From the IMG/VR virus record IMGVR_UViG_2563366988_000001: a stretch of 26,266 bases of DNA; one strand, 5' to 3'. This document shows, piece after piece, positions 3,935-18,826 of this stretch (position 1 is its first letter; each line of letters opens with the position of its first letter). The position numbers and the translations under genes were made by a program. Under the pieces are notes generated by a model. That model did not search any database and was not told the DNA's origin. It saw only the letters and a program-made list of their open reading frames with translations. This DNA comes from a virus. Lineage: Duplodnaviria > Heunggongvirae > Uroviricota > Caudoviricetes.

Positions 3935-4675
3935 ATGCCAACACCAAATCCTCTGGCACCGGTGAAAGGGGCCGGGACCACACTGTGGGTTTATAACGGG
4001 AGCGGCGACCCTTATGCAAACCCGCTTTCAGACAATGACTGGTCGCGTCTGGCAAAGGTTAAAGACCTGACGCCCGGCGAACTGACCGCTGAGTCCTATG
4101 ACGACAGTTATCTCGATGATGAAGATGCGGACTGGACCGCGACCGGACAGGGGCAGAAATCTGCCGGAGATACCAGCTTCACGCTGGCGTGGATGCCCGG
4201 AGAGCAGGGGCAGCAGGCGCTGCTGGCGTGGTTTAATGAAGGTGATACCCGTGCCTATAAAATCCGCTTCCCGAACGGCACGATCGATGTGTTCCGCGGC
4301 TGGGTCAGCAGTATCGGTAAGGCGGTGACGGCGAAGGAAGTGATCACCCGCACGGTGAAAGTCACCAATGTGGGACGTCCGTCGATGGCAGAAGATCGCA
4401 GCACGGTAACAGCGGCAACCGGCATGACCGTGACGCCTGCCAGCACCTCGGTGGTGAAAGGGAAGAGCACGACGCTGACCGTGGCATTCCAGCCGGAAGG
4501 CGCAACCGACAAGAGCTTCCGTGCGGTGTCTGCGGATAAAACAAAAGCCACCGTGTCGGTCAGTGGTATGACCATCACCGTGAAAGGTGTTGCTGCAGGC
4601 AAGGTCAACATTCCGGTCGTATCCGGTAATGGTGAACTTGCTGCGGTTGCAGAAATCAACGTCACCGCCAGTTAA
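3935..4675 (+). CDS. V: Major tail tube protein V (with C-terminal Ig-like domain)
   Basis: 246 aa starting [31 protein letters not shown], matches lambda gpV; GAGGA RBS at 3926-3930. The ORF-track start at 3905 is an upstream extension. Confidence 0.93.
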
Positions 4676-5529: not shown

Positions 5530-8083
5530 ACCGGTAGGCGATCTGGTCGTTGATTTGAGTCTGGATGCGGCCAGATTTGACGAGCAGATGGCCAGAGTCA
5601 GGCGTCATTTTTCCGGTACGGAAAGTGATGCGAAAAAAACAGCGGCAGTCGTTGAACAGTCGCTGAGCCGACAGGCGCTGGCTGCACAGAAAGCGGGGAT
5701 TTCCGTTGGGCAGTATAAAGCTGCCATGCGTATGCTGCCTGCGCAGTTCACTGACGTGGCCACGCAGCTTGCAGGCGGGCAAAGTCCGTGGCTGATCCTG
5801 CTGCAACAGGGTGGTCAGGTGAAGGACTCCTTCGGCGGGATGATCCCCATGTTCAGGGGGCTTGCCGGTGCGCTCACCCTGCCGATGGTCGGGGCCACCT
5901 CGCTGGCGGTGGCGACCGGTGCGCTGGCGTATGCCTGGTATCAGGGCAACTCAACCCTGTCCGATTTCAACAAAACGCTGGTCCTTTCCGGCAATCAGTC
6001 GGGGCTGACGGCAGATCGCATGCTGGTCCTGTCCAGAGCCGGGCAGGCGGCAGGGCTGACGTTTGACCAGACCAGCGAGTCACTCAGCGCACTGGTTAAG
6101 GCGGGGGTAAGCGGTGAGGCTCAGATTGCGTCCATCAGCCAGAGTGTGGCGCGTTTCTCCTCTGCATCCAGCGTGGAGGTGGACAAGGTCGCTGAAGCCT
6201 TCGGGAAGCTGACCACAGACCCGACGTCGGGGCTGACGGCGATGGCACGCCAGTTCCATAACGTGACGGCGGAGCAGATTGCGTATGTTGCTCAGTTGCA
6301 GCGTTCCGGCGATGAAGCCGGGGCATTGCAGGCGGCGAACGAGGCCGCAACGAAAGGGTTTGATGACCAGACCCGCCGCCTGAAAGAGAACATGGGCACG
6401 CTGGAGACCTGGGCAGACAGGACTGCGCGGGCATTCAAATCCATGTGGGATGCGGTGCTGGATATTGGTCGTCCTGATACCGCGCAGGAGATGCTGATTA
6501 AGGCAGAGGCTGCGTTTAAGAAAGCAGACGACATCTGGAATCTGCGCAAGGATGATTATTTTGTTAACGATGAAGCGCGGGCGCGTTACTGGGATGACCG
6601 TGAAAAGGCCCGTCTTGCGCTTGAAGCCGCCCGAAAGAAGGCTGAGCAGCAGACTCAACAGGACAAAAATGCGCAGCAGCAGAGCGATACCGAAGCGTCA
6701 CGGCTGAAATATACCGAAGAGGCGCAGAAGGCTTACGAACGGCTGCAGACGCCGCTGGAGAAATATACCGCCCGTCAGGAAGAACTGAACAAGGCACTGA
6801 AAGACGGGAAAATCCTGCAGGCGGATTACAACACGCTGATGGCGGCGGCGAAAAAGGATTATGAAGCGACGCTGAAAAAGCCGAAACAGTCCGGCGTGAA
6901 GGTGTCTGCGGGCGATCGTCAGGAAGACAGTGCTCATGCTGCTCTGCTGACGCTTCAGGCAGAACTCCGGACGCTGGAGAAGCATGCCGGAGCAAATGAG
7001 AAAATCAGCCAGCAGCGCCGGGATTTGTGGAAGGCGGAGAGTCAGTTCGCGGTACTGGAGGAGGCGGCGCAACGTCGCCAGCTGTCTGCACAGGAGAAAT
7101 CCCTGCTGGCGCATAAAGATGAGACGCTGGAGTACAAACGCCAGCTGGCTGCGCTTGGCGACAAGGTTACGTATCAGGAGCGCCTGAACGCGCTGGCGCA
7201 GCAGGCGGATAAATTCGCACAGCAGCAACGGGCAAAACGGGCCGCCATTGATGCGAAAAGCCGGGGGCTGACTGACCGGCAGGCAGAACGGGAAGCCACG
7301 GAACAGCGCCTGAAGGAACAGTATGGCGATAATCCGCTGGCGCTGAATAACGTCATGTCAGAGCAGAAAAAGACCTGGGCGGCTGAAGACCAGCTTCGCG
7401 GGAACTGGATGGCAGGCCTGAAGTCCGGCTGGAGTGAGTGGGAAGAGAGCGCCACGGACAGTATGTCGCAGGTAAAAAGTGCAGCCACGCAGACCTTTGA
7501 TGGTATTGCACAGAATATGGCGGCGATGCTGACCGGCAGTGAGCAGAACTGGCGCAGCTTCACCCGTTCCGTGCTGTCCATGATGACAGAAATTCTGCTT
7601 AAGCAGGCAATGGTGGGGATTGTCGGGAGTATCGGCAGCGCCATTGGCGGGGCTGTTGGTGGCGGCGCATCCGCGTCAGGCGGTACAGCCATTCAGGCCG
7701 CTGCGGCGAAATTCCATTTTGCAACCGGAGGATTTACGGGAACCGGCGGCAAATATGAGCCAGCGGGGATTGTTCACCGTGGTGAGTTTGTCTTCACGAA
7801 GGAGGCAACCAGCCGGATTGGCGTGGGGAATCTTTACCGGCTGATGCGCGGCTATGCCACCGGCGGTTATGTCGGTACACCGGGCAGCATGGCAGACAGC
7901 CGGTCGCAGGCGTCCGGGACGTTTGAGCAGAATAACCATGTGGTGATTAACAACGACGGCACGAACGGGCAGATAGGTCCGGCCGCTCTGAAGGCGGTGT
8001 ATGACATGGCCCGCAAGGGTGCCCGTGATGAAATTCAGACACAGATGCGTGATGGTGGCCTGTTCTCCGGAGGTGGACGATGA
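5522..8083 (+). CDS. H: Tail tape measure protein H
   Basis: 853 aa, same length as lambda gpH; coiled-coil-rich central region; start overlaps the T stop. Confidence 0.95.
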   Translation: MAEPVGDLVVDLSLDAARFDEQMARVRRHFSGTESDAKKTAAVVEQSLSRQALAAQKAGISVGQYKAAMRMLPAQFTDVATQLAGGQSPWLILLQQGGQVKDSFGGMIPMFRGLAGALTLPMVGATSLAVATGALAYAWYQGNSTLSDFNKTLVLSGNQSGLTADRMLVLSRAGQAAGLTFDQTSESLSALVKAGVSGEAQIASISQSVARFSSASSVEVDKVAEAFGKLTTDPTSGLTAMARQFHNVTAEQIAYVAQLQRSGDEAGALQAANEAATKGFDDQTRRLKENMGTLETWADRTARAFKSMWDAVLDIGRPDTAQEMLIKAEAAFKKADDIWNLRKDDYFVNDEARARYWDDREKARLALEAARKKAEQQTQQDKNAQQQSDTEASRLKYTEEAQKAYERLQTPLEKYTARQEELNKALKDGKILQADYNTLMAAAKKDYEATLKKPKQSGVKVSAGDRQEDSAHAALLTLQAELRTLEKHAGANEKISQQRRDLWKAESQFAVLEEAAQRRQLSAQEKSLLAHKDETLEYKRQLAALGDKVTYQERLNALAQQADKFAQQQRAKRAAIDAKSRGLTDRQAEREATEQRLKEQYGDNPLALNNVMSEQKKTWAAEDQLRGNWMAGLKSGWSEWEESATDSMSQVKSAATQTFDGIAQNMAAMLTGSEQNWRSFTRSVLSMMTEILLKQAMVGIVGSIGSAIGGAVGGGASASGGTAIQAAAAKFHFATGGFTGTGGKYEPAGIVHRGEFVFTKEATSRIGVGNLYRLMRGYATGGYVGTPGSMADSRSQASGTFEQNNHVVINNDGTNGQIGPAALKAVYDMARKGARDEIQTQMRDGGLFSGGGR

Positions 8084-13850: not shown

Positions 13851-13869
13851 ATTTTATAACCCAGATACG

Positions 13870-13895
13870 GGCACCAGAAATGGTGCCTTTTTTAT
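13870..13895 (+). terminator. Intrinsic terminator after J (GGCACC-agaaat-GGTGCC then TTTTTTATT)
   Basis: Perfect 6-bp GC stem followed by a T6 run, 20 nt after the J stop. Confidence 0.6.
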
Positions 13896-13917: not shown

Positions 13918-14517
13918 ATGCGTAAATTATGTGCTGTTATTCTGTCCGCAGTAGTCTGGCTGGTTGCCGCTGGTACGCCAGCGAGCGCAGCAGAGCATCA
14001 GTCCACACTAAGCGCCGGGTATCTTCAGACCCATACTGATATGCCAGGCAGTGATGACCTGAAGGGCATTAACGTGAAATACCGTTATGAATTTACGGAC
14101 ACGCTGGGGCTGGTGACGTCATTCAGTTATGCCAATGCCAAAGATGAGCAAAGAACGCATTACAGCGATACCCGCTGGCATGAAGATTCAGTGCGTAACC
14201 GCTGGTTCAGCATGATGGCGGGGCCATCTGTACGCGTGAATGAATGGTTCAGTGCTTATGCGATGGCAGGTGTGGCTTACAGCCGTGTTTCGACGTTCTC
14301 CGGGGATTATCTCCGCGTAACTGACAACAAGGGGAAAACGCACGATGTGCTGACCGGAAGTGATGACGATCGCCACAGCAACACGTCTCTGGCGTGGGGA
14401 GCTGGCGTGCAGTTTAACCCGACCGAATCCGTGGCCATTGATATTGCTTATGAAGGCTCCGGCAGTGGCGACTGGCGCACTGACGGTTTCATCGTGGGTG
14501 TCGGTTATAAGTTCTGA
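13918..14517 (+). CDS. lom: Outer membrane protein Lom (Ail/Lom/PagC family beta-barrel)
   Basis: 199 aa with signal peptide MRKLCAVILSAVVWLVAAGTPASAAEH and C-terminal GYKF; matches lambda Lom from memory. Confidence 0.92.
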   Translation: MRKLCAVILSAVVWLVAAGTPASAAEHQSTLSAGYLQTHTDMPGSDDLKGINVKYRYEFTDTLGLVTSFSYANAKDEQRTHYSDTRWHEDSVRNRWFSMMAGPSVRVNEWFSAYAMAGVAYSRVSTFSGDYLRVTDNKGKTHDVLTGSDDDRHSNTSLAWGAGVQFNPTESVAIDIAYEGSGSGDWRTDGFIVGVGYKF

Positions 14518-14543: not shown

Positions 14544-14571
14544 AGCCCGCCGGTTCAGGCGGGCTTTTTTG
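14544..14571 (+). terminator. Intrinsic terminator after lom (AGCCCGCC-ggttca-GGCGGGCT then TTTTTT)
   Basis: 8-bp perfect GC-rich stem followed by a T-run. Confidence 0.7.
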
Positions 14572-14581
14572 TGGAGTGGAT

Positions 14582-16957
14582 ATGGCAGCAGTAAAAATCT
14601 CAGGTGTGCTGAAAGATGGTGCGGGAAAACCAATACAGAACTGCACTATTCAACTGAAGGCAAAGCGTAACAGCACCACGGTACTGGTGAACACGGTGGC
14701 TTCTGAAAATCCGGATGAAGCCGGACGTTACAGCATGGATGTTGAGTATGGCCAGTACAGCGTCACCCTGCTGGTTGAAGGTTTTCCGCCTTCACATGCC
14801 GGGACCATTACCGTCTATGAAGGCTCCAGACCAGGTACGCTGAATGATTTTCTCGGTGCCATGACGGAAGATGATGTCATGCCGGAGGCATTGCGTCGTT
14901 TTGAGGAAATGGTGGAAGAAGCGGCACGCAACGCTGAAGCCGCCTCTCAGAGCGCAGCGGCGGCAAAGAAATCCGAAACTGCAGCGGCATCATCGAAGAA
15001 CGCGGCGAAAACCTCAGAAACGAATGCAGCTAATAGTGCACAGGCGGCAGCGACCTCAAAGACTGCATCGGCAAACTCCGCGACAGCAGCCAAAAAATCA
15101 GAAACCAACGCGAAAAATAGCGAGACAGCCGCAAAGACGAGCGAAACCAACGCAAAGTCCAGCCAGACGGCAGCGAAAACCAGCGAAACGAATGCCAAAG
15201 CCAGTGAAACTGCGGCAAAAAACAGCCAGGTTGCAGCAGCCCAAATCGAGAGCGCGGCAGCCGGTTCTGCGACTTCAGCAGCTGGATCAGCAACTGCTGC
15301 GGCTAACAGCCAGAAAGCTGCGAAGACGAGTGAAACTAACGCAAAGTTCAGCCAGACGGCAGCGAAGACCAGCGAAACGAATGCCAAAGCCAGCGAAACT
15401 GCGGCGAAAAACAGTCAGGATGCAGCAGCCCAAAGCGAGAGTGCTGCAGCTGGTTCTGCAAGCGCGGCGGCTGCTTCTGCCACTGCATCAGCCAACAGTC
15501 AAAAAGCAGCAAAAACCAGTGAAACCAATGCAAAGACAAGCGAGACTGCAGCGGCGAACTCGGCGAAAGCATCGGCAGCAAGCCAGACAGCAGCTAAAGC
15601 AAGTGAAGACGCAGCCAGAGAGTATGCAAGTCAGGCAGCAGAGCCGTATAAATATGTCTTACAGCCGCTGCCTGATGTGTGGATACCATTTAACGATTCG
15701 CTGGATATGATTACGGGCTTTTCGCCATCATATAAAAAAATTGTTATTGGTGACGATGAAATAACGATGCCTGGCGACAAGATTGTTAAGTTTAAACGTG
15801 CATCGAAAGCAACCTATATTAACAAATCTGGTGTGCTGACAGAGGCTGCCATTGACGAGCCACGATTTGAACGTGATGGCCTGCTTATTGAGGGGCAAAG
15901 AACAAACTACATGCTCAATTCGGAAAGCCCTGCAAGTTGGGGGCGATCATCAAATATGGATGTGCCCGAAACAGGGACGGATAATTTTGGTTTTACCTAT
16001 GGAAAGTTTGTCTGCAACGATTCTCTGATTGGGCAAACCTCAGCCATTAATATGGCATCAATTGCTGCAACAAAGTCAGTTGATGTCTCAGGCGATAATA
16101 AACACGTGACAACCTCATGTCGTTTTAAAACAGAACTGCAGGTAAGGTTGCGTATCCGGTTTGATAAATATGACGGTAGCACAACAACTTTTCTTGGTGA
16201 TGCGTATATTGATACACAAACGCTTGAAATTAATATGACAGGCGGTGCTGCCTCAAGAATTACAGCGAGAGTCAGAAAGGACGAAGCTACCGGATGGATT
16301 TTTGCAGAGGCAACAATTCAGGCAATTGATGGGGAGTTAAAAATAGGCTCTCAGATACAGTATTCTCCTAAGCAGAGCGGGGCAACCGTATCTGGTGACT
16401 ATATTTATCTGGCCACCCCACAAGTAGAAGATGGGCCTTGTGTATCATCTTTTATTATATCAGGAGCGACGGCGGCGACCCGCGCAAGCGATATAGTTAC
16501 AGTTCCAATTAAGAATAATCTTTATAATCTTCCTTTTACGGTTCTTTGTGAGGTACATAAGAACTGGTATAAAACGCCAAATGCAGCGCCACGTGTTTTT
16601 GATACCGGCGGTCATCAAACCGGAGCGGCTATTATTCTTGGCTTCGGTCGTTCAACAGATTACGACGGATTTCCTTATTGCGATATTGGAGGAGCTAACA
16701 GACGGGTAAACGAAAACGCATCGCTTGAAAAAATGGTTATGGGGATGCGTGTAAAGTCAGAGCAGTCTACGTGCTCAGTAAGTAACGGGCATATATCCAG
16801 CGAAACAAAAACCACATGGTCCTGTATTCAGAACACCGCAATTATCCGTATTGGAGGCCAGACTACAGCCGGGTTACGTCATTTATTTGGTCATGTCAGG
16901 AATTTTAGAATATGGCACAAGGCATTGACTGATGCTCAGGTGGGGGAGTCAATCTAA
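14582..16957 (+). CDS. stf: Side tail fibre protein (lambda Stf-like N-terminal half with alanine-rich repeats; divergent lower-GC C-terminal receptor-binding region with LamG-like features)
   Basis: N-terminus MAAVKISGVLKDGAGKPIQNCTIQLKAKRNSTT matches lambda Stf; AAKTSETNAK-type repeats; base composition visibly drops from about 15650; C-terminal ...RHLFGHVRNFRIWHKALTDAQV resembles a LamG-like jelly-roll tail. Confidence 0.88.
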   Translation: MAAVKISGVLKDGAGKPIQNCTIQLKAKRNSTTVLVNTVASENPDEAGRYSMDVEYGQYSVTLLVEGFPPSHAGTITVYEGSRPGTLNDFLGAMTEDDVMPEALRRFEEMVEEAARNAEAASQSAAAAKKSETAAASSKNAAKTSETNAANSAQAAATSKTASANSATAAKKSETNAKNSETAAKTSETNAKSSQTAAKTSETNAKASETAAKNSQVAAAQIESAAAGSATSAAGSATAAANSQKAAKTSETNAKFSQTAAKTSETNAKASETAAKNSQDAAAQSESAAAGSASAAAASATASANSQKAAKTSETNAKTSETAAANSAKASAASQTAAKASEDAAREYASQAAEPYKYVLQPLPDVWIPFNDSLDMITGFSPSYKKIVIGDDEITMPGDKIVKFKRASKATYINKSGVLTEAAIDEPRFERDGLLIEGQRTNYMLNSESPASWGRSSNMDVPETGTDNFGFTYGKFVCNDSLIGQTSAINMASIAATKSVDVSGDNKHVTTSCRFKTELQVRLRIRFDKYDGSTTTFLGDAYIDTQTLEINMTGGAASRITARVRKDEATGWIFAEATIQAIDGELKIGSQIQYSPKQSGATVSGDYIYLATPQVEDGPCVSSFIISGATAATRASDIVTVPIKNNLYNLPFTVLCEVHKNWYKTPNAAPRVFDTGGHQTGAAIILGFGRSTDYDGFPYCDIGGANRRVNENASLEKMVMGMRVKSEQSTCSVSNGHISSETKTTWSCIQNTAIIRIGGQTTAGLRHLFGHVRNFRIWHKALTDAQVGESI
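15161..15538 (+). repeat. Tandem direct repeat, 2 x 189 bp (63-aa unit), inside stf
   Basis: Unit 1 at 15161-15349 and unit 2 at 15350-15538 encode SQTAAKTSETNAKASETAAKNSQ[V/D]AAAQ[I/S]ESAAAGSA... with few substitutions; shorter 13-14 aa sub-repeats on either side. Confidence 0.85.
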
Positions 16958-17238
16958 TGAAAGATTTAACACTCAAATTTGCCGACAGGGCCGACTTTTC
17001 GGCCTTTATGGAGAGTATTGGCTATTATGATGACGAGTCGATGCAGGATGATATTCTTATTGACGTGATAGGTAACGCGTACAAAGAAACCGGAGAACTG
17101 ACTGAAGATGGCGAACCGGTATGTGTTAAGGAAGACGGATATTTTGTAAACGTGCGCATCATTAATGATTCGCAAATATCGTCATTATTCGATGAATACG
17201 TGGTTGCTGTTGAGCATCAACTTCGTGGCTGGATGTGA
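16957..17238 (+). CDS. Hypothetical acidic 93-aa protein, translationally coupled to stf; possible fibre chaperone
   Basis: ATG overlaps the stf stop (TAATG); no homolog recognised from memory; lower-GC segment. Confidence 0.6.
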   Translation: MKDLTLKFADRADFSAFMESIGYYDDESMQDDILIDVIGNAYKETGELTEDGEPVCVKEDGYFVNVRIINDSQISSLFDEYVVAVEHQLRGWM

Positions 17239-17247
17239 GGAAGAAAA

Positions 17248-18285
17248 ATGGCTACATCGACAGTAATTCCTGATGACATCAAAACGCTAAAATCCGACGT
17301 TAGCAAATTAAAAAACGATCAAGGAAGCTACGCAACAAAATTATATGTAGACAGCAAAGATGAAATCGTTGGTGACTGGTCTGCTTCATGGTATCAGCAG
17401 GTATTGCCAACTAGCGGAGCTATATTTGGGAGAAAACTCCGCTCAACTCACAGGACGGCAGGTGTTGAGGATGCGTATTGCGAACTATACCTCAAAAAAT
17501 GGATAGACAGTCCAGGTAACGCAATGGCGCGCCTTAACCTGAACGATAACGGGACAAACATTTGCTGGGACTCTACCAACCTTTATGGCGGTACGATGAT
17601 TTTTCCCGGTGACAGCGGATACCTCAAAATGGGTAACTGCCTTATGTCATACAGCAAGCGTGGAAGTAACGCGCTTATTAAATTTGATTACACCGACACA
17701 TTACAGATCAAATATGCCAATCATGGGTCAACCATGACATTAAACACACAGGGAACCGCTTATGCTGGTGTTACTGCTCAATTGTGGGGCAACTCCAGCC
17801 GTCCTGTTGTTTATGAAGTCGGTGTTGATGGTGGCGCTTATATGTTCTATGCGCAGAAAAATACCGATAACACCTATATGTTAAGCGTTAATGGTGCATG
17901 TCATGCCACCACATTTAACCAGCATTCCGACCGGGATCTGAAAGACAACATTCAGGTGATCGATAATGCAACCGACCGCATCCGTAAAATGAACGGCTAT
18001 ACATACACGCTTAAAGAAAACGGTATCCCCTATGCTGGTGTCATTGCACAGGAAGCTCTGGAAGCAATCCCAGAAGTTGTAGGTTCCGCAATGAAATATC
18101 AGGACGGTGCAAGCGGATCGGAAGGTGAAGAAGGTGAACGTTATTACACAGTAGATTATTCTGGTGTTACTGGCTTGCTTGTTCAGGTAGCCAGAGAGTC
18201 AGACGACAGGATAACAGCACTGGAAGAAGAAAACGCAGAATTAAGACAAAGATTATCTGCAATTGAGGCGGCGCTTGCGTCTTAA
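17248..18285 (+). CDS. Tail fibre/spike protein with C-terminal peptidase S74 intramolecular chaperone domain
   Basis: C-terminal motif HSDRDLKDNIQVIDNATDRIRKMNGYTYTLKENGIPYAGVIAQEALEAIPEVV matches the self-cleaving chaperone domain of endosialidases and T5 pb1 (Ser...Lys dyad, SDRxLK), followed by a coiled-coil tail. Confidence 0.8.
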   Translation: MATSTVIPDDIKTLKSDVSKLKNDQGSYATKLYVDSKDEIVGDWSASWYQQVLPTSGAIFGRKLRSTHRTAGVEDAYCELYLKKWIDSPGNAMARLNLNDNGTNICWDSTNLYGGTMIFPGDSGYLKMGNCLMSYSKRGSNALIKFDYTDTLQIKYANHGSTMTLNTQGTAYAGVTAQLWGNSSRPVVYEVGVDGGAYMFYAQKNTDNTYMLSVNGACHATTFNQHSDRDLKDNIQVIDNATDRIRKMNGYTYTLKENGIPYAGVIAQEALEAIPEVVGSAMKYQDGASGSEGEEGERYYTVDYSGVTGLLVQVARESDDRITALEEENAELRQRLSAIEAALAS

Positions 18286-18294
18286 TAATATTAA

Positions 18295-18317
18295 GGGGTC
18301 GAGCGCCCCGTTTTATT
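18295..18317 (+). terminator. Weak terminator-like hairpin (GGGGtcgagcGCCCC) plus GTTTTATT after the S74 fibre gene
   Basis: Short GC stem and T-run; overlaps the approach to the next gene's RBS. Confidence 0.3.
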
Positions 18318-18330
18318 GGGTAGGATGAAA

Positions 18331-18624
18331 ATGGATATAACACCTTTCCTTCATGCGCTTTGTGCTGTGGCTGCGCAGCTACTGATTGGTCTTTTTACCG
18401 GGAACTGGGCTTACGGGGCGATAGCCGGTTGTACGTTCTTCATTGCGCGTGAACACACCCAGGCAGAATATCGCTGGATTGAAATGTTCGGGCATGGCAA
18501 GCGAATGAATATGCCGTGGTGGGGCGGTTTTGATCCGCGCGCGTGGGATGTAGCAAGTCTGATGGATTTTGCTGTGCCGGTGGTGGCGTGTCTGCTGGTC
18601 TGGCTGTTGGTTAATCGTGGGTGA
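18331..18624 (+). CDS. Small integral membrane protein (about 97 aa, three predicted TM segments), unknown function
   Basis: ATG at 18331 with AGGA at 18322-18325; the ORF-track frame opens at 18316 (TTG). Hydrophobic stretches FLHALCAVAAQLLIGLF, AYGAIAGCTFFIA, FAVPVVACLLVWLLV. Confidence 0.6.
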   Translation: MDITPFLHALCAVAAQLLIGLFTGNWAYGAIAGCTFFIAREHTQAEYRWIEMFGHGKRMNMPWWGGFDPRAWDVASLMDFAVPVVACLLVWLLVNRG

Positions 18625-18634
18625 AAAAAGGTGA

Positions 18635-18763
18635 GCTGTATATGCAACGGAGGAAGAAACCTCGTTGCTGGAAGCCTGGAAGAAGTATCGGGTGTTGCTG
18701 AACCGTGTTGATACATCAACTGCACCTGATATTGAGTGGCCTACGAACCCTGTCAGGGAGTAA
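18635..18763 (+). pseudogene. tfa: Tail fibre assembly protein Tfa, 3' remnant (last about 40 codons, no start codon)
   Basis: Frame encodes ...[39 protein letters not shown], matching the lambda Tfa C-terminus; in-frame TGA immediately upstream at 18632-18634. Confidence 0.8.
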
Positions 18764-18777
18764 TCATTGGGATTATG

Positions 18778-18826
18778 CCGCAGCACGTCTTAAGCAAGAA
18801 CGTGCTGCGGTTGGATGCTATTTTTT
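18778..18826. terminator. Hairpin (CCGCAGCACGT-loop-ACGTGCTGCGG) plus T-run between convergent tfa remnant and methyltransferase gene; candidate bidirectional terminator
   Basis: 11-bp stem at 18778-18788 / 18800-18810, then TATTTTTT at 18819-18826; a second copy at 26089-26123 carries compensatory changes. Confidence 0.5.

Follow-up and report, generated by a model that had tools for sequence, protein, structure and literature searches.

The last gene of the tail fibre cassette in a viral sequence of 26,266 nucleotides (Caudoviricetes; IMG/VR record IMGVR_UViG_2563366988_000001; hereafter the window) encodes a 97-residue, predicted three-helix inner-membrane protein of the PHROG 1443 family. 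The gene is highly conserved, recurs behind the receptor-binding genes of unrelated phages, and is silent or transcribed in lysogens according to the context in which it is inserted. We tentatively favour an account in which it provides a portable accessory inner-membrane protein, produced in this context by antiterminated late transcription, with an exclusion-type block of genome entry as the leading guess for its action. The gene lacks a Pfam family, a solved structure and an assigned function despite its presence in about a third of complete E. coli genomes, and the AIEC strain LF82 alone carries three copies.

A sequence-only reading of the window had singled out an open reading frame at 18316-18624, coding for 97-102 residues, and had proposed that the product is a superinfection-exclusion or moron protein. 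The frame is confirmed on the plus strand at 18316..18624 by the list of open reading frames of the window, and homologues, the PHROG 1443 profile and purifying selection among the E. coli copies compared all bear it out as a gene. Indeed, since it has 575 homologues in a 90%-clustered database (every one named 'hypothetical protein'), since the PHROG 1443 family comprises about 444 clusters at 50% identity, and since dN/dS is 0.08-0.17, the frame at 18331..18624 is not a chance one. The true start is almost certainly the ATG at 18331, which gives 97 residues, rather than the TTG at 18316, and the 102-residue version of the protein is thus set aside. Three features of the sequence point to this start. 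PHROG 1443 profile positions 1-96/97 align to residues 6-101 of the TTG version; similarity between the window, Tritos, phage 21 and a Qin-site prophage, i.e., four aligned upstream contexts, sets in 1-2 nt ahead of the ATG; and the AGGA at 18322-18325, already proposed as the ribosome binding site, lies 5 nt upstream of it. Each of the four upstream contexts brings its own Shine-Dalgarno sequence, which is AAGGAGG in phage 21 and the Qin-site prophage versus AGGA in the window. The in-frame upstream extension at 18316..18330 (plus strand), which contains the TTG at 18316, the AGGA and a further ATG at 18325, is probably untranslated, as suggested by the different stretch found at this place in phage 21 and the Qin-site prophage. 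The coding sequence at 18331..18624 (plus strand, stop included) is supported by the frame itself, the family profile, the structural model and dN/dS. The overlapping minus-strand frames at 18379-18786 and 18411-18725 have no comparable homologue or selection support, and an Rfam scan of the whole window found no RNA family.

The protein matches PHROG 1443, annotated as 'unknown function', over its full length (E=6.9e-59, 197 bits). The 150 best representatives of the 444 clusters are all 58-146 residues long and carry no added domains or fusions. Scans of the 97-residue protein against Pfam, NCBIfam and PADLOC gave no match, a Pfam scan of 49 distant members returned noise only (e.g., PhoR at E=0.003 and VirB3), and a sequence profile search of the PDB with the 97-residue protein found no relative. 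A 451-nt query with the gene at its centre is present to at least 80% in 1749 of 5426 complete E. coli genomes, and the gene is often present in several copies in the genomes that carry it. Identity is about 60% among the proteins of Escherichia, Salmonella, Leclercia, Citrobacter, Aeromonas and Comamonas, which have in common the near-invariant core AREHTQAEYRWI..FG.GKR.NMPWWGGFD.R.W. In an alignment of 49 distant members (28-55% identity), E41 and W72 are invariant, and H8, R40, Q44, A45, E46 and P83 are retained in at least 90%. The motif ranks among the most conserved of phage 'hypothetical' proteins. Conservation of the 97-residue protein is 80-100% even where the fibre or tailspike upstream is entirely different. 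A literature search covering phage 21 and sit, superinfection exclusion and morons, DUF5658, Jouyvirus and Stf chaperones found no functional study of the gene, and the gene goes unmentioned in a CRISPRi screen of LF82 in the gut. The sequence is already public as a 'hypothetical protein', and the family fits a known kind, that of small phage accessory membrane proteins encoded in the cargo slot that follows receptor-binding genes.

An AlphaFold2 model built on a 28-sequence alignment (mean pLDDT 92.4) comprises three helices (residues 4-23, 26-53 and 74-96), the last two of which are joined by a structured loop (54-73). Kyte-Doolittle maxima at about 7-24 and 76-93, with a weaker maximum at 25-39, agree with the three hydrophobic segments noticed initially, and the protein would thus sit in the cytoplasmic membrane as three helices. 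The distribution of positive charges was assessed over 218 members. The 36-residue loop between helices 2 and 3 contains on average 5.7 K+R, as compared to 0.5 in the N-terminus, 0.06 in the turn between helices 1 and 2, and 0.5 in the C-tail. By the positive-inside rule, which is the only basis of the topology call, this near-invariant K/R-rich loop would lie on the cytoplasmic side, and the parts predicted to face the periplasm amount to a 3-residue turn and a C-tail of about 3 residues. The TMHMM call made by the depositors of phage 21 differs, with two transmembrane segments and both termini inside. The conserved loop motif, GRE.AQAEYRWI ... G.R...PW..GF..R.W, is flanked by the membrane-embedded His8 and Asp79/Pro83, and the loop would be the functional surface of the protein. 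Foldseek searches of the PDB and BFVD with the model gave no match at E<0.5. The presence of His8, Glu41/46 and Asp79 brought to mind an intramembrane metalloprotease of the CPBP type, an idea that is speculation, as there is neither an HExxH motif nor a PF02517 match. The initial remark that the protein has no lipobox holds for the family, in which Cys34 is unconserved; residues 31-34 of the E. coli protein (IAGC) loosely fit one. A lipoprotein was considered on account of these four residues and rejected, given the lack of conservation of Cys34 in the 49-member alignment and an N-terminus devoid of positive charge.

The gene closes a fibre cassette whose order is known from lambda-like phages. 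The 451-nt region at 18250-18700 is 100% identical to phage 2G7b, which also has the gene order of the window. This order starts with J and lom (Ail_Lom), the latter located between two strong hairpins, and the cassette itself opens with the side tail fibre gene, Stf (14576..16957, plus strand; Pfam phage_tail_N, E=7e-67), as it does in both 2G7b and Tritos. Stf is followed by a 93-residue frame of PHROG 1361, of unknown function (16957..17238, plus strand), which occupies this position in all six Escherichia and coliphage lambda-like contexts examined. In Comamonas kerstersii, a distant analogue of this 93-residue frame precedes a homologue of the 97-residue protein. Next comes a second fibre gene of 345 codons (17248..18285, plus strand), assigned to PHROG 4563, 'tail fiber protein' (E=2e-217), and ending in a Peptidase_S74 intramolecular chaperone domain (PF13884, E=7e-14). 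The six lambda-like contexts all run from Stf through the 93-residue frame and an optional fibre of 234-346 residues to the 97-residue frame, and differ in the 3′ neighbour of the latter, which is a tfa remnant, sitABCD (in phage 21 and Perceval) or pinQ. In the window, the right flank is the 3′ remnant of a tfa (tail-fibre-assembly) gene at 18644..18763 (plus strand), recognised from its translation and from an equivalent labelled by PGAP as 'tail fiber assembly protein, missing N-terminus'. This remnant is conserved together with the gene in other contexts and is repeated in the window at 19686-19760. Beyond the first remnant lie a minus-strand SAM methyltransferase gene and the second remnant, followed by an alpha/beta-hydrolase gene split by IS21, an omptin gene and an integrase fragment; no lysis gene was found around the gene in the window. 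The first description, of a small polytopic membrane protein encoded immediately 3′ of the receptor-binding genes, is therefore accurate.

The junction between the second fibre gene and the 97-residue frame contains the terminator-like hairpin that the sequence-only reading had reported, a 5-bp stem with a 5-nt loop and a U-rich tail (18295..18317, plus strand). The hairpin proper, GGGGTCGAGCGCCCC, occupies 18295-18309 and is followed by GTTTTATT. It is the sole plus-strand match to such a structure within 17800-19600, and is modest, having 5 pairs and being thermodynamically unremarkable (z = -1.2 for the whole segment). One of its pairs is G-U in the window versus G-C in Tritos, which makes the Tritos hairpin one base stronger; judging by this pair, the window hairpin may be leakier. 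No sigma-70-like promoter site was found between the fibre gene and the frame. The joints of the cassette are well defined: the left recombination joint falls exactly on the ATG at 18331 and the right joint lies within the leftover 3′ end of tfa, the similarity between the four contexts running from 1-2 nt before the ATG into the tfa remnant. The GC content of the frame is about 0.53 (0.52-0.54), against about 0.44 (0.41-0.47) for its flanks, i.e., the distal parts of the fibre genes and the methyltransferase gene. The window copy thus has the base composition, unlike that of its neighbours, expected of a moron, and does not have the promoter of its own that also characterises morons, homology between contexts starting at the ATG.

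Transcription in lysogens could be followed in E. coli LF82, whose three copies encode proteins 100% (TRITO_22), 96% (PERCE_24) and 80% (GALLYPH_17) identical to that of the window. TRITO_22, in prophage Tritos, has the same four-gene order as the window. Expression values, in log2(fpkm+5) and for five conditions, were taken from the S1 and S4 tables of Misson et al. 2023 (PMC9928086). TRITO_22 does not rise above background in any of them, with 2.8-3.8 in overnight LB, 3.0-3.6 in DMEM (1 h and 6 h) and 3.2-3.8 in macrophages (1 h and 6 h), raw counts of 1-17 and a log2FC of 0.21 that is not significant (PMC9928086). The three fibre-cassette genes upstream, TRITO_19-21, go from 2.3-2.9 in LB to 2.8-5.0 in DMEM and 5-8.3 in macrophages, a rise of 30-200-fold, and the signal drops across the hairpin from a log2 value of about 7 (TRITO_21) to about 3.3-3.5 (TRITO_22) (PMC9928086). 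Tritos transcription stops at the hairpin. PERCE_24, which lies directly 3′ of the 93-residue frame with no hairpin in between, rises together with the Perceval Stf gene and PERCE_23, from 3.2-3.8 in LB to about 4.2-4.4 in DMEM and about 6 in macrophages (log2FC 3) (PMC9928086); reads may partly cross-map between the Tritos and Perceval copies, which are about 95% identical in DNA, TRITO_22 still receiving about 10-fold fewer than PERCE_24. The Gally copy is preceded by a 9-bp terminator and then by an AT-rich spacer of 190 nt that contains a promoter-like site, and has its own Shine-Dalgarno sequence. GALLYPH_17 increases from about 4 in LB to 6.0 (1 h) and 7.0 (6 h) in DMEM, and reaches 8.0 (1 h) and 8.4-8.7 (6 h) in macrophages, above the upstream tailspike gene (7.8) (PMC9928086). 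The morons listed for LB include none of the three LF82 copies (PMC9928086).

Altogether, these data show that expression is dictated by the context rather than by the cassette, and that the context of the window is silent in the lysogen, as seen from the identical Tritos copy. The expectation that the gene would be expressed in the prophage state, for which RNA-seq had been suggested as a check, thus fails for a gene encoding the identical protein in an identical gene order in LB, DMEM and macrophages; this absence of lysogenic expression is one half of the joint finding named beforehand as speaking against the proposal. Moron status is divided accordingly: the Gally copy is laid out like a moron and its transcription in the lysogen is seen in DMEM and macrophages, and the GC content of the gene differs from that of its flanks, whereas the window has no promoter and a joint at the ATG, and transcription from a repressed prophage is not seen for TRITO_22. 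Adjacency to fibre genes and a hairpin are therefore insufficient to make a moron. In the proposed mechanism, the window copy would be promoterless and preceded by a terminator that is active as long as the prophage is repressed. The lambda-type Q-modified polymerase passes intrinsic terminators, from which late lytic production is inferred; the protein would then be made together with the tail fibres, and only when Q-antiterminated transcription reads through the hairpin.

Outside lambda-like phages, the same placement, behind a fibre, tailspike or tfa gene, recurs in unrelated phages, among them P22-like, epsilon15-like and P2-like ones and DGR prophages. The gene separates tailspike from integrase in the P22-like Gally and tail fibre from lysis cassette in the epsilon15-like phiv142-3, and lies downstream of tail-fibre genes in prophages of Comamonas and Pantoea. 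The Halomonas myophage phiHAP-1 has it overlapping the tfa end and ahead of the sheath gene. Prophages of Comamonas nitrativorans, Pigmentiphaga and Ideonella carry it between a DGR target gene and avd, and phage HC6 keeps a decayed, frameshifted remnant of it after an S74 fibre gene. Other locations have no such link: a run of small overlapping genes in Aeromonas phage 62AhydR11PP, an interval flanked by DarB-like and HNH genes in the jumbo phage PS1, and a group of small accessory genes in a P1-like phage-plasmid. Chromosomal copies also exist. Four Aeromonas genomes have one at a single syntenic locus, flanked by pirin on the upstream side and by lipid A acyltransferases and TehA on the other, and Sphingomonadales have single copies next to ligA, ftsZ/SPOR, PBP1A, KpsF, Wza, PNPase, M13 peptidase, MFS or HerA genes. 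The ftsZ/SPOR neighbours, seen in two Sphingomicrobium MAGs, suggested a link with cell division that is not general, other sphingomonad loci having different neighbours. Neighbour clustering revealed no conserved neighbour or partner gene across 62 loci, and PADLOC run on 141 neighbours (55 loci) showed no enrichment in defence genes, the only hits being two DGR reverse transcriptases. Since its left joint is at the ATG, a tfa stub lies on its right, the receptor-binding proteins upstream are varied and chromosomal copies exist, the gene would be a portable accessory, the last gene of exchangeable receptor-binding-protein cassettes, and neither a virion nor a fibre-assembly component. Homology to a structural or assembly protein, named beforehand as a finding that would speak against exclusion, was not detected, neither Pfam nor PHROG giving a Tfa match and Foldseek finding no relative.

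With regard to known systems, T4 Imm, P22 SieA and HK97 gp15 are small stand-alone phage inner-membrane proteins that act without a partner on the entry of incoming DNA, and HK97 gp15 is a moron inside the tail gene region. They are the nearest in working principle, by their size, location and stand-alone action and, for gp15, also by its place in the tail region; the 97-residue protein is likewise a small integral protein with three predicted helices and no partner gene. The exclusion exerted by SieA and Imm has been summarised (PMC11436027). From its place in the inner membrane, the protein would act alone and on a target shared by Proteobacteria, which, given the high conservation and the absence of a conserved partner, is probably a conserved host membrane component. 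Its action would be an Imm/SieA/gp15-type block of the incoming phage genome, or a related exclusion at the level of the membrane, rather than a mask on an outer-membrane receptor. Taken by itself, an Imm/SieA/gp15-type mechanism, which is drawn by analogy, is possible and still doubtful. In contrast to these three proteins, the PHROG 1443 family is also chromosomal outside prophages, an identical copy is silent in the lysogen, and there is neither sequence nor fold similarity; more generally, PHROG, PADLOC, PDB profile and Foldseek searches detected no similarity to characterised exclusion or defence proteins. Several further observations go against exclusion. The identity of about 60% between E. 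coli and Aeromonas or Comamonas members is unusually high for an arms-race protein, the lone chromosomal copies of Aeromonas and Sphingomonadales lie among housekeeping genes, the neighbours of the 55 loci scanned show no enrichment in defence genes beyond two DGR reverse transcriptases, and production restricted to late lytic growth is an odd place for an exclusion protein, few late-acting examples being known. A bolder version, which we regard as unlikely, would make the family a new and ancient class of single-gene inner-membrane exclusion or immunity proteins, kept at receptor-binding cassettes, with the joint at the ATG, by phages of at least five architectures, whose conserved loop acts from the cytoplasmic face on a host inner-membrane component needed by most phages of Proteobacteria for genome entry, and whose chromosomal copies have been domesticated.

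The specific proposal of the sequence-only reading, a moron expressed in lysogens and blocking the receptor of the neighbouring fibres, or injection through that receptor, in the manner of T5 Llp or phi80/N15 Cor, now appears improbable, and the superinfection-exclusion and moron interpretation as a whole is partly supported. T5 Llp is a receptor-blocking lipoprotein, encoded beside the receptor-binding gene, that acts on FhuA. FhuA is also the target of Cor (PMC11436027). Each of these genes, like that of the 97-residue protein, adjoins a phage receptor-binding gene, and the divergent GC content, the hairpin, the Shine-Dalgarno sequence of the gene itself and the layout and lysogenic transcription of the Gally copy in DMEM and macrophages are as expected of such a moron. 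However, the identical Tritos copy is silent under five lysogen conditions, no promoter-like site accompanies the joint at the ATG, and annotated exclusion PHROGs show no similarity. Moreover, Llp and Cor are exported lipoproteins that act at the outer membrane, while the 97-residue protein is a three-helix integral protein in which the 49-member alignment reveals no lipoprotein signal with a conserved lipobox Cys, and for which the charge counts of 218 members predict almost no periplasmic residues, hence no functional part in the periplasm or outer membrane. If the topology prediction is right, the cytoplasmic loop thus makes receptor masking unlikely. Because the same protein stands behind unrelated fibres and tailspikes, and also behind DGR targets, it is unmatched to any one receptor and is not tied to one fibre type. 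Somewhat unlikely, and yet deserving more weight than receptor blocking, is a host-type membrane protein working in cell physiology (envelope, or ion or metal homeostasis through its His, Glu and Asp residues), carried by phages as cargo that helps the lysogen in host-like environments and having no anti-phage role. The syntenic Aeromonas copies beside pirin, lipid A acyltransferase and TehA genes, the lone Sphingomonadales copies by ligA, ftsZ, PBP1A, KpsF, Wza and PNPase, the very high conservation without a defence-island signal, the induction of the Gally and Perceval copies in DMEM and macrophages and the adjoining sitABCD of phage 21 and Perceval are all in line with this. Yet no conserved operon partner or neighbourhood suggests a pathway, the gene occurs in the likely virulent phages PS1 and 62AhydR11PP, to which a benefit for the lysogen is irrelevant, the Tritos copy is silent, and the recurrent slot after receptor-binding genes would have to be a coincidence.

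The late production proposed for the window is also compatible with a role confined to the lytic cycle, in which an accessory of the fibre cassette would adjust lysis timing, or spare progeny or incoming genomes from being wasted on infected or lysed cells, replacing tfa in position only. Cotranscription with the fibre genes in Perceval, the phiHAP-1 late operon, in which the gene overlaps tfa ahead of the sheath gene, its place directly before the lysis cassette in phiv142-3, its occupation of the site of the deleted tfa body and its silence in the Tritos lysogen would all follow. Such a role is nonetheless rather unlikely, in view of chromosomal copies with no phage genes nearby, of the promoter-like site and lysogenic expression in Gally, of the pseudogene in HC6, a phage that was not lost, and of the lack of linkage to holin and endolysin genes in lambda-like phages. 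A holin is disfavoured on similar grounds, no endolysin or spanin partner being found near the frame in the window and a lysis cassette adjoining it only in phiv142-3; one of the 49 members gave a sub-threshold match to Phage_holin_8 (E=0.0036). As for Tfa, its absence from the Pfam and PHROG matches goes along with the membrane nature of the 97-residue protein and with the separate tfa 3′ remnant downstream. Immunity proteins against membrane-acting toxins are often inner-membrane proteins of about 100 residues with three transmembrane segments, so that the size and three-helix architecture of the protein, and the scattering of single copies over chromosomes and mobile elements, would suit an orphan immunity protein, directed at a colicin or pyocin that forms pores or at an effector of a T6SS. 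This is highly improbable, as no toxin gene was found beside any copy, no neighbour is conserved across the 62 loci, the 49 members match no Pfam immunity family, and the conservation is far above that usual for immunity proteins. The portable accessory made late and possibly acting in exclusion is kept as the preferred, if tentative, account.

Cargo slots of the kind used by this gene hold conversion and exclusion genes in several well-known phages, e.g., Z/fun between G and FI in P2, gtrABC or oac after the tailspike gene in P22 and Sf6, and the conversion genes after the tailspike gene in epsilon15. The 97-residue protein is encoded in the same slots in phiHAP-1 (between tfa and sheath), Gally (between tailspike and int) and phiv142-3 (after the tail fibre). 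The known cargo genes modify the O-antigen or block T5, are unrelated in sequence to the 97-residue protein, and are for the most part much larger or organised in multi-gene sets. Recurrence in this slot of receptor-linked conversion and exclusion genes, together with the sharply conserved motif, gives the family its interest. Should it exclude phages, phage therapy of E. coli would have one more widespread resistance determinant to reckon with; otherwise, the family would be a conserved small membrane protein of Proteobacteria repeatedly borrowed by phages. DUF5658 (PF18902) also occurs in such a slot. Its profile matches neither the window protein nor 48 relatives, and tblastn found no phage homologue of it; in the Ideonella DGR prophage, where the gene again lies between DGR target and avd, a DUF5658 membrane domain (residues 108-189) is joined to the C-terminal side of the family domain.

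The fibre cassette of the window (14576-18285), composed of the side tail fibre gene (Stf), a 93-aa ORF and a fibre gene with a Peptidase_S74 chaperone domain (S74), is the counterpart of TRITO_19-21 and PERCE_22-23 in the prophages Tritos and Perceval of E. coli LF82. RNA-seq of LF82 has shown that these three genes are induced approximately 30-200-fold within macrophages, while J, lom and the other late genes stay at background level (PMC9928086). Because the fibre genes are induced while these late genes are not, the fibre cassette is transcribed independently in lysogens. A search of the lom-stf interval for a sigma-70-like promoter found none. The lom gene itself (13918-14517; Ail_Lom, E=6e-127) lies between two strong terminator-like hairpins (13869-13888 and 14544-14565), which is the textbook moron layout, unlike that of the target ORF encoding the three-helix inner-membrane protein of PHROG 1443.

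Within the cassette, the 93-aa ORF (16957-17238; PHROG 1361, unknown function) overlaps the stop codon of Stf, and in each of the six lambda-like contexts from Escherichia and coliphages that were examined it comes after Stf. Where it does so, the tail-fibre-assembly gene (tfa) is a mere stub, and the ORF may serve as a chaperone for Stf of this type. A distant look-alike is found in Comamonas kerstersii, upstream of a PHROG 1443 homologue.

Where the structural module of Escherichia phage HC6 ends, immediately 3′ of a gene for an S74-type fibre of 859 aa, lies a frameshifted remnant of the PHROG 1443 family (L076 2965-3120; ..RRRANIPWWGGFDWRAWDLPSLLD), which carries no annotation. In three prophages bearing a DGR, the family gene has the DGR variable target gene on one side and avd on the other; it is found at 4001-4594 of locus L080 in the Ideonella dechloratans plasmid prophage and at approximately 5947-6300 of loci L031 and L032 in the other two. 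The Ideonella protein is a fusion whose C-terminal part, residues 108-189, is a DUF5658 membrane domain (E=2.7e-10).

A 75-nt direct repeat with 88% identity (18644-18718 and 19686-19760), both copies of which correspond to the 3′ end of tfa, flanks a SAM methyltransferase gene (18818-19486, minus strand; PHROG 2132) on either side. The tfa 3′ end seems to be a recombination joint at which cargo cassettes were inserted one after another. At 20025-23468, an alpha/beta-hydrolase gene is interrupted by an IS21-family element encoding istA (20785-21807) and istB (21804-22586), which leaves an Abhydrolase_4 half (20025-20732) and an Abhydrolase_1 half (22596-23468), both on the minus strand; in phage 2G7b, whose gene order matches, the gene is uninterrupted (1395 nt). 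The prophage end carries genes for an omptin-family outer-membrane protease and a truncated phage integrase (23655-24608 and 25083-25820, both minus strand), as it does in phage 2G7b.
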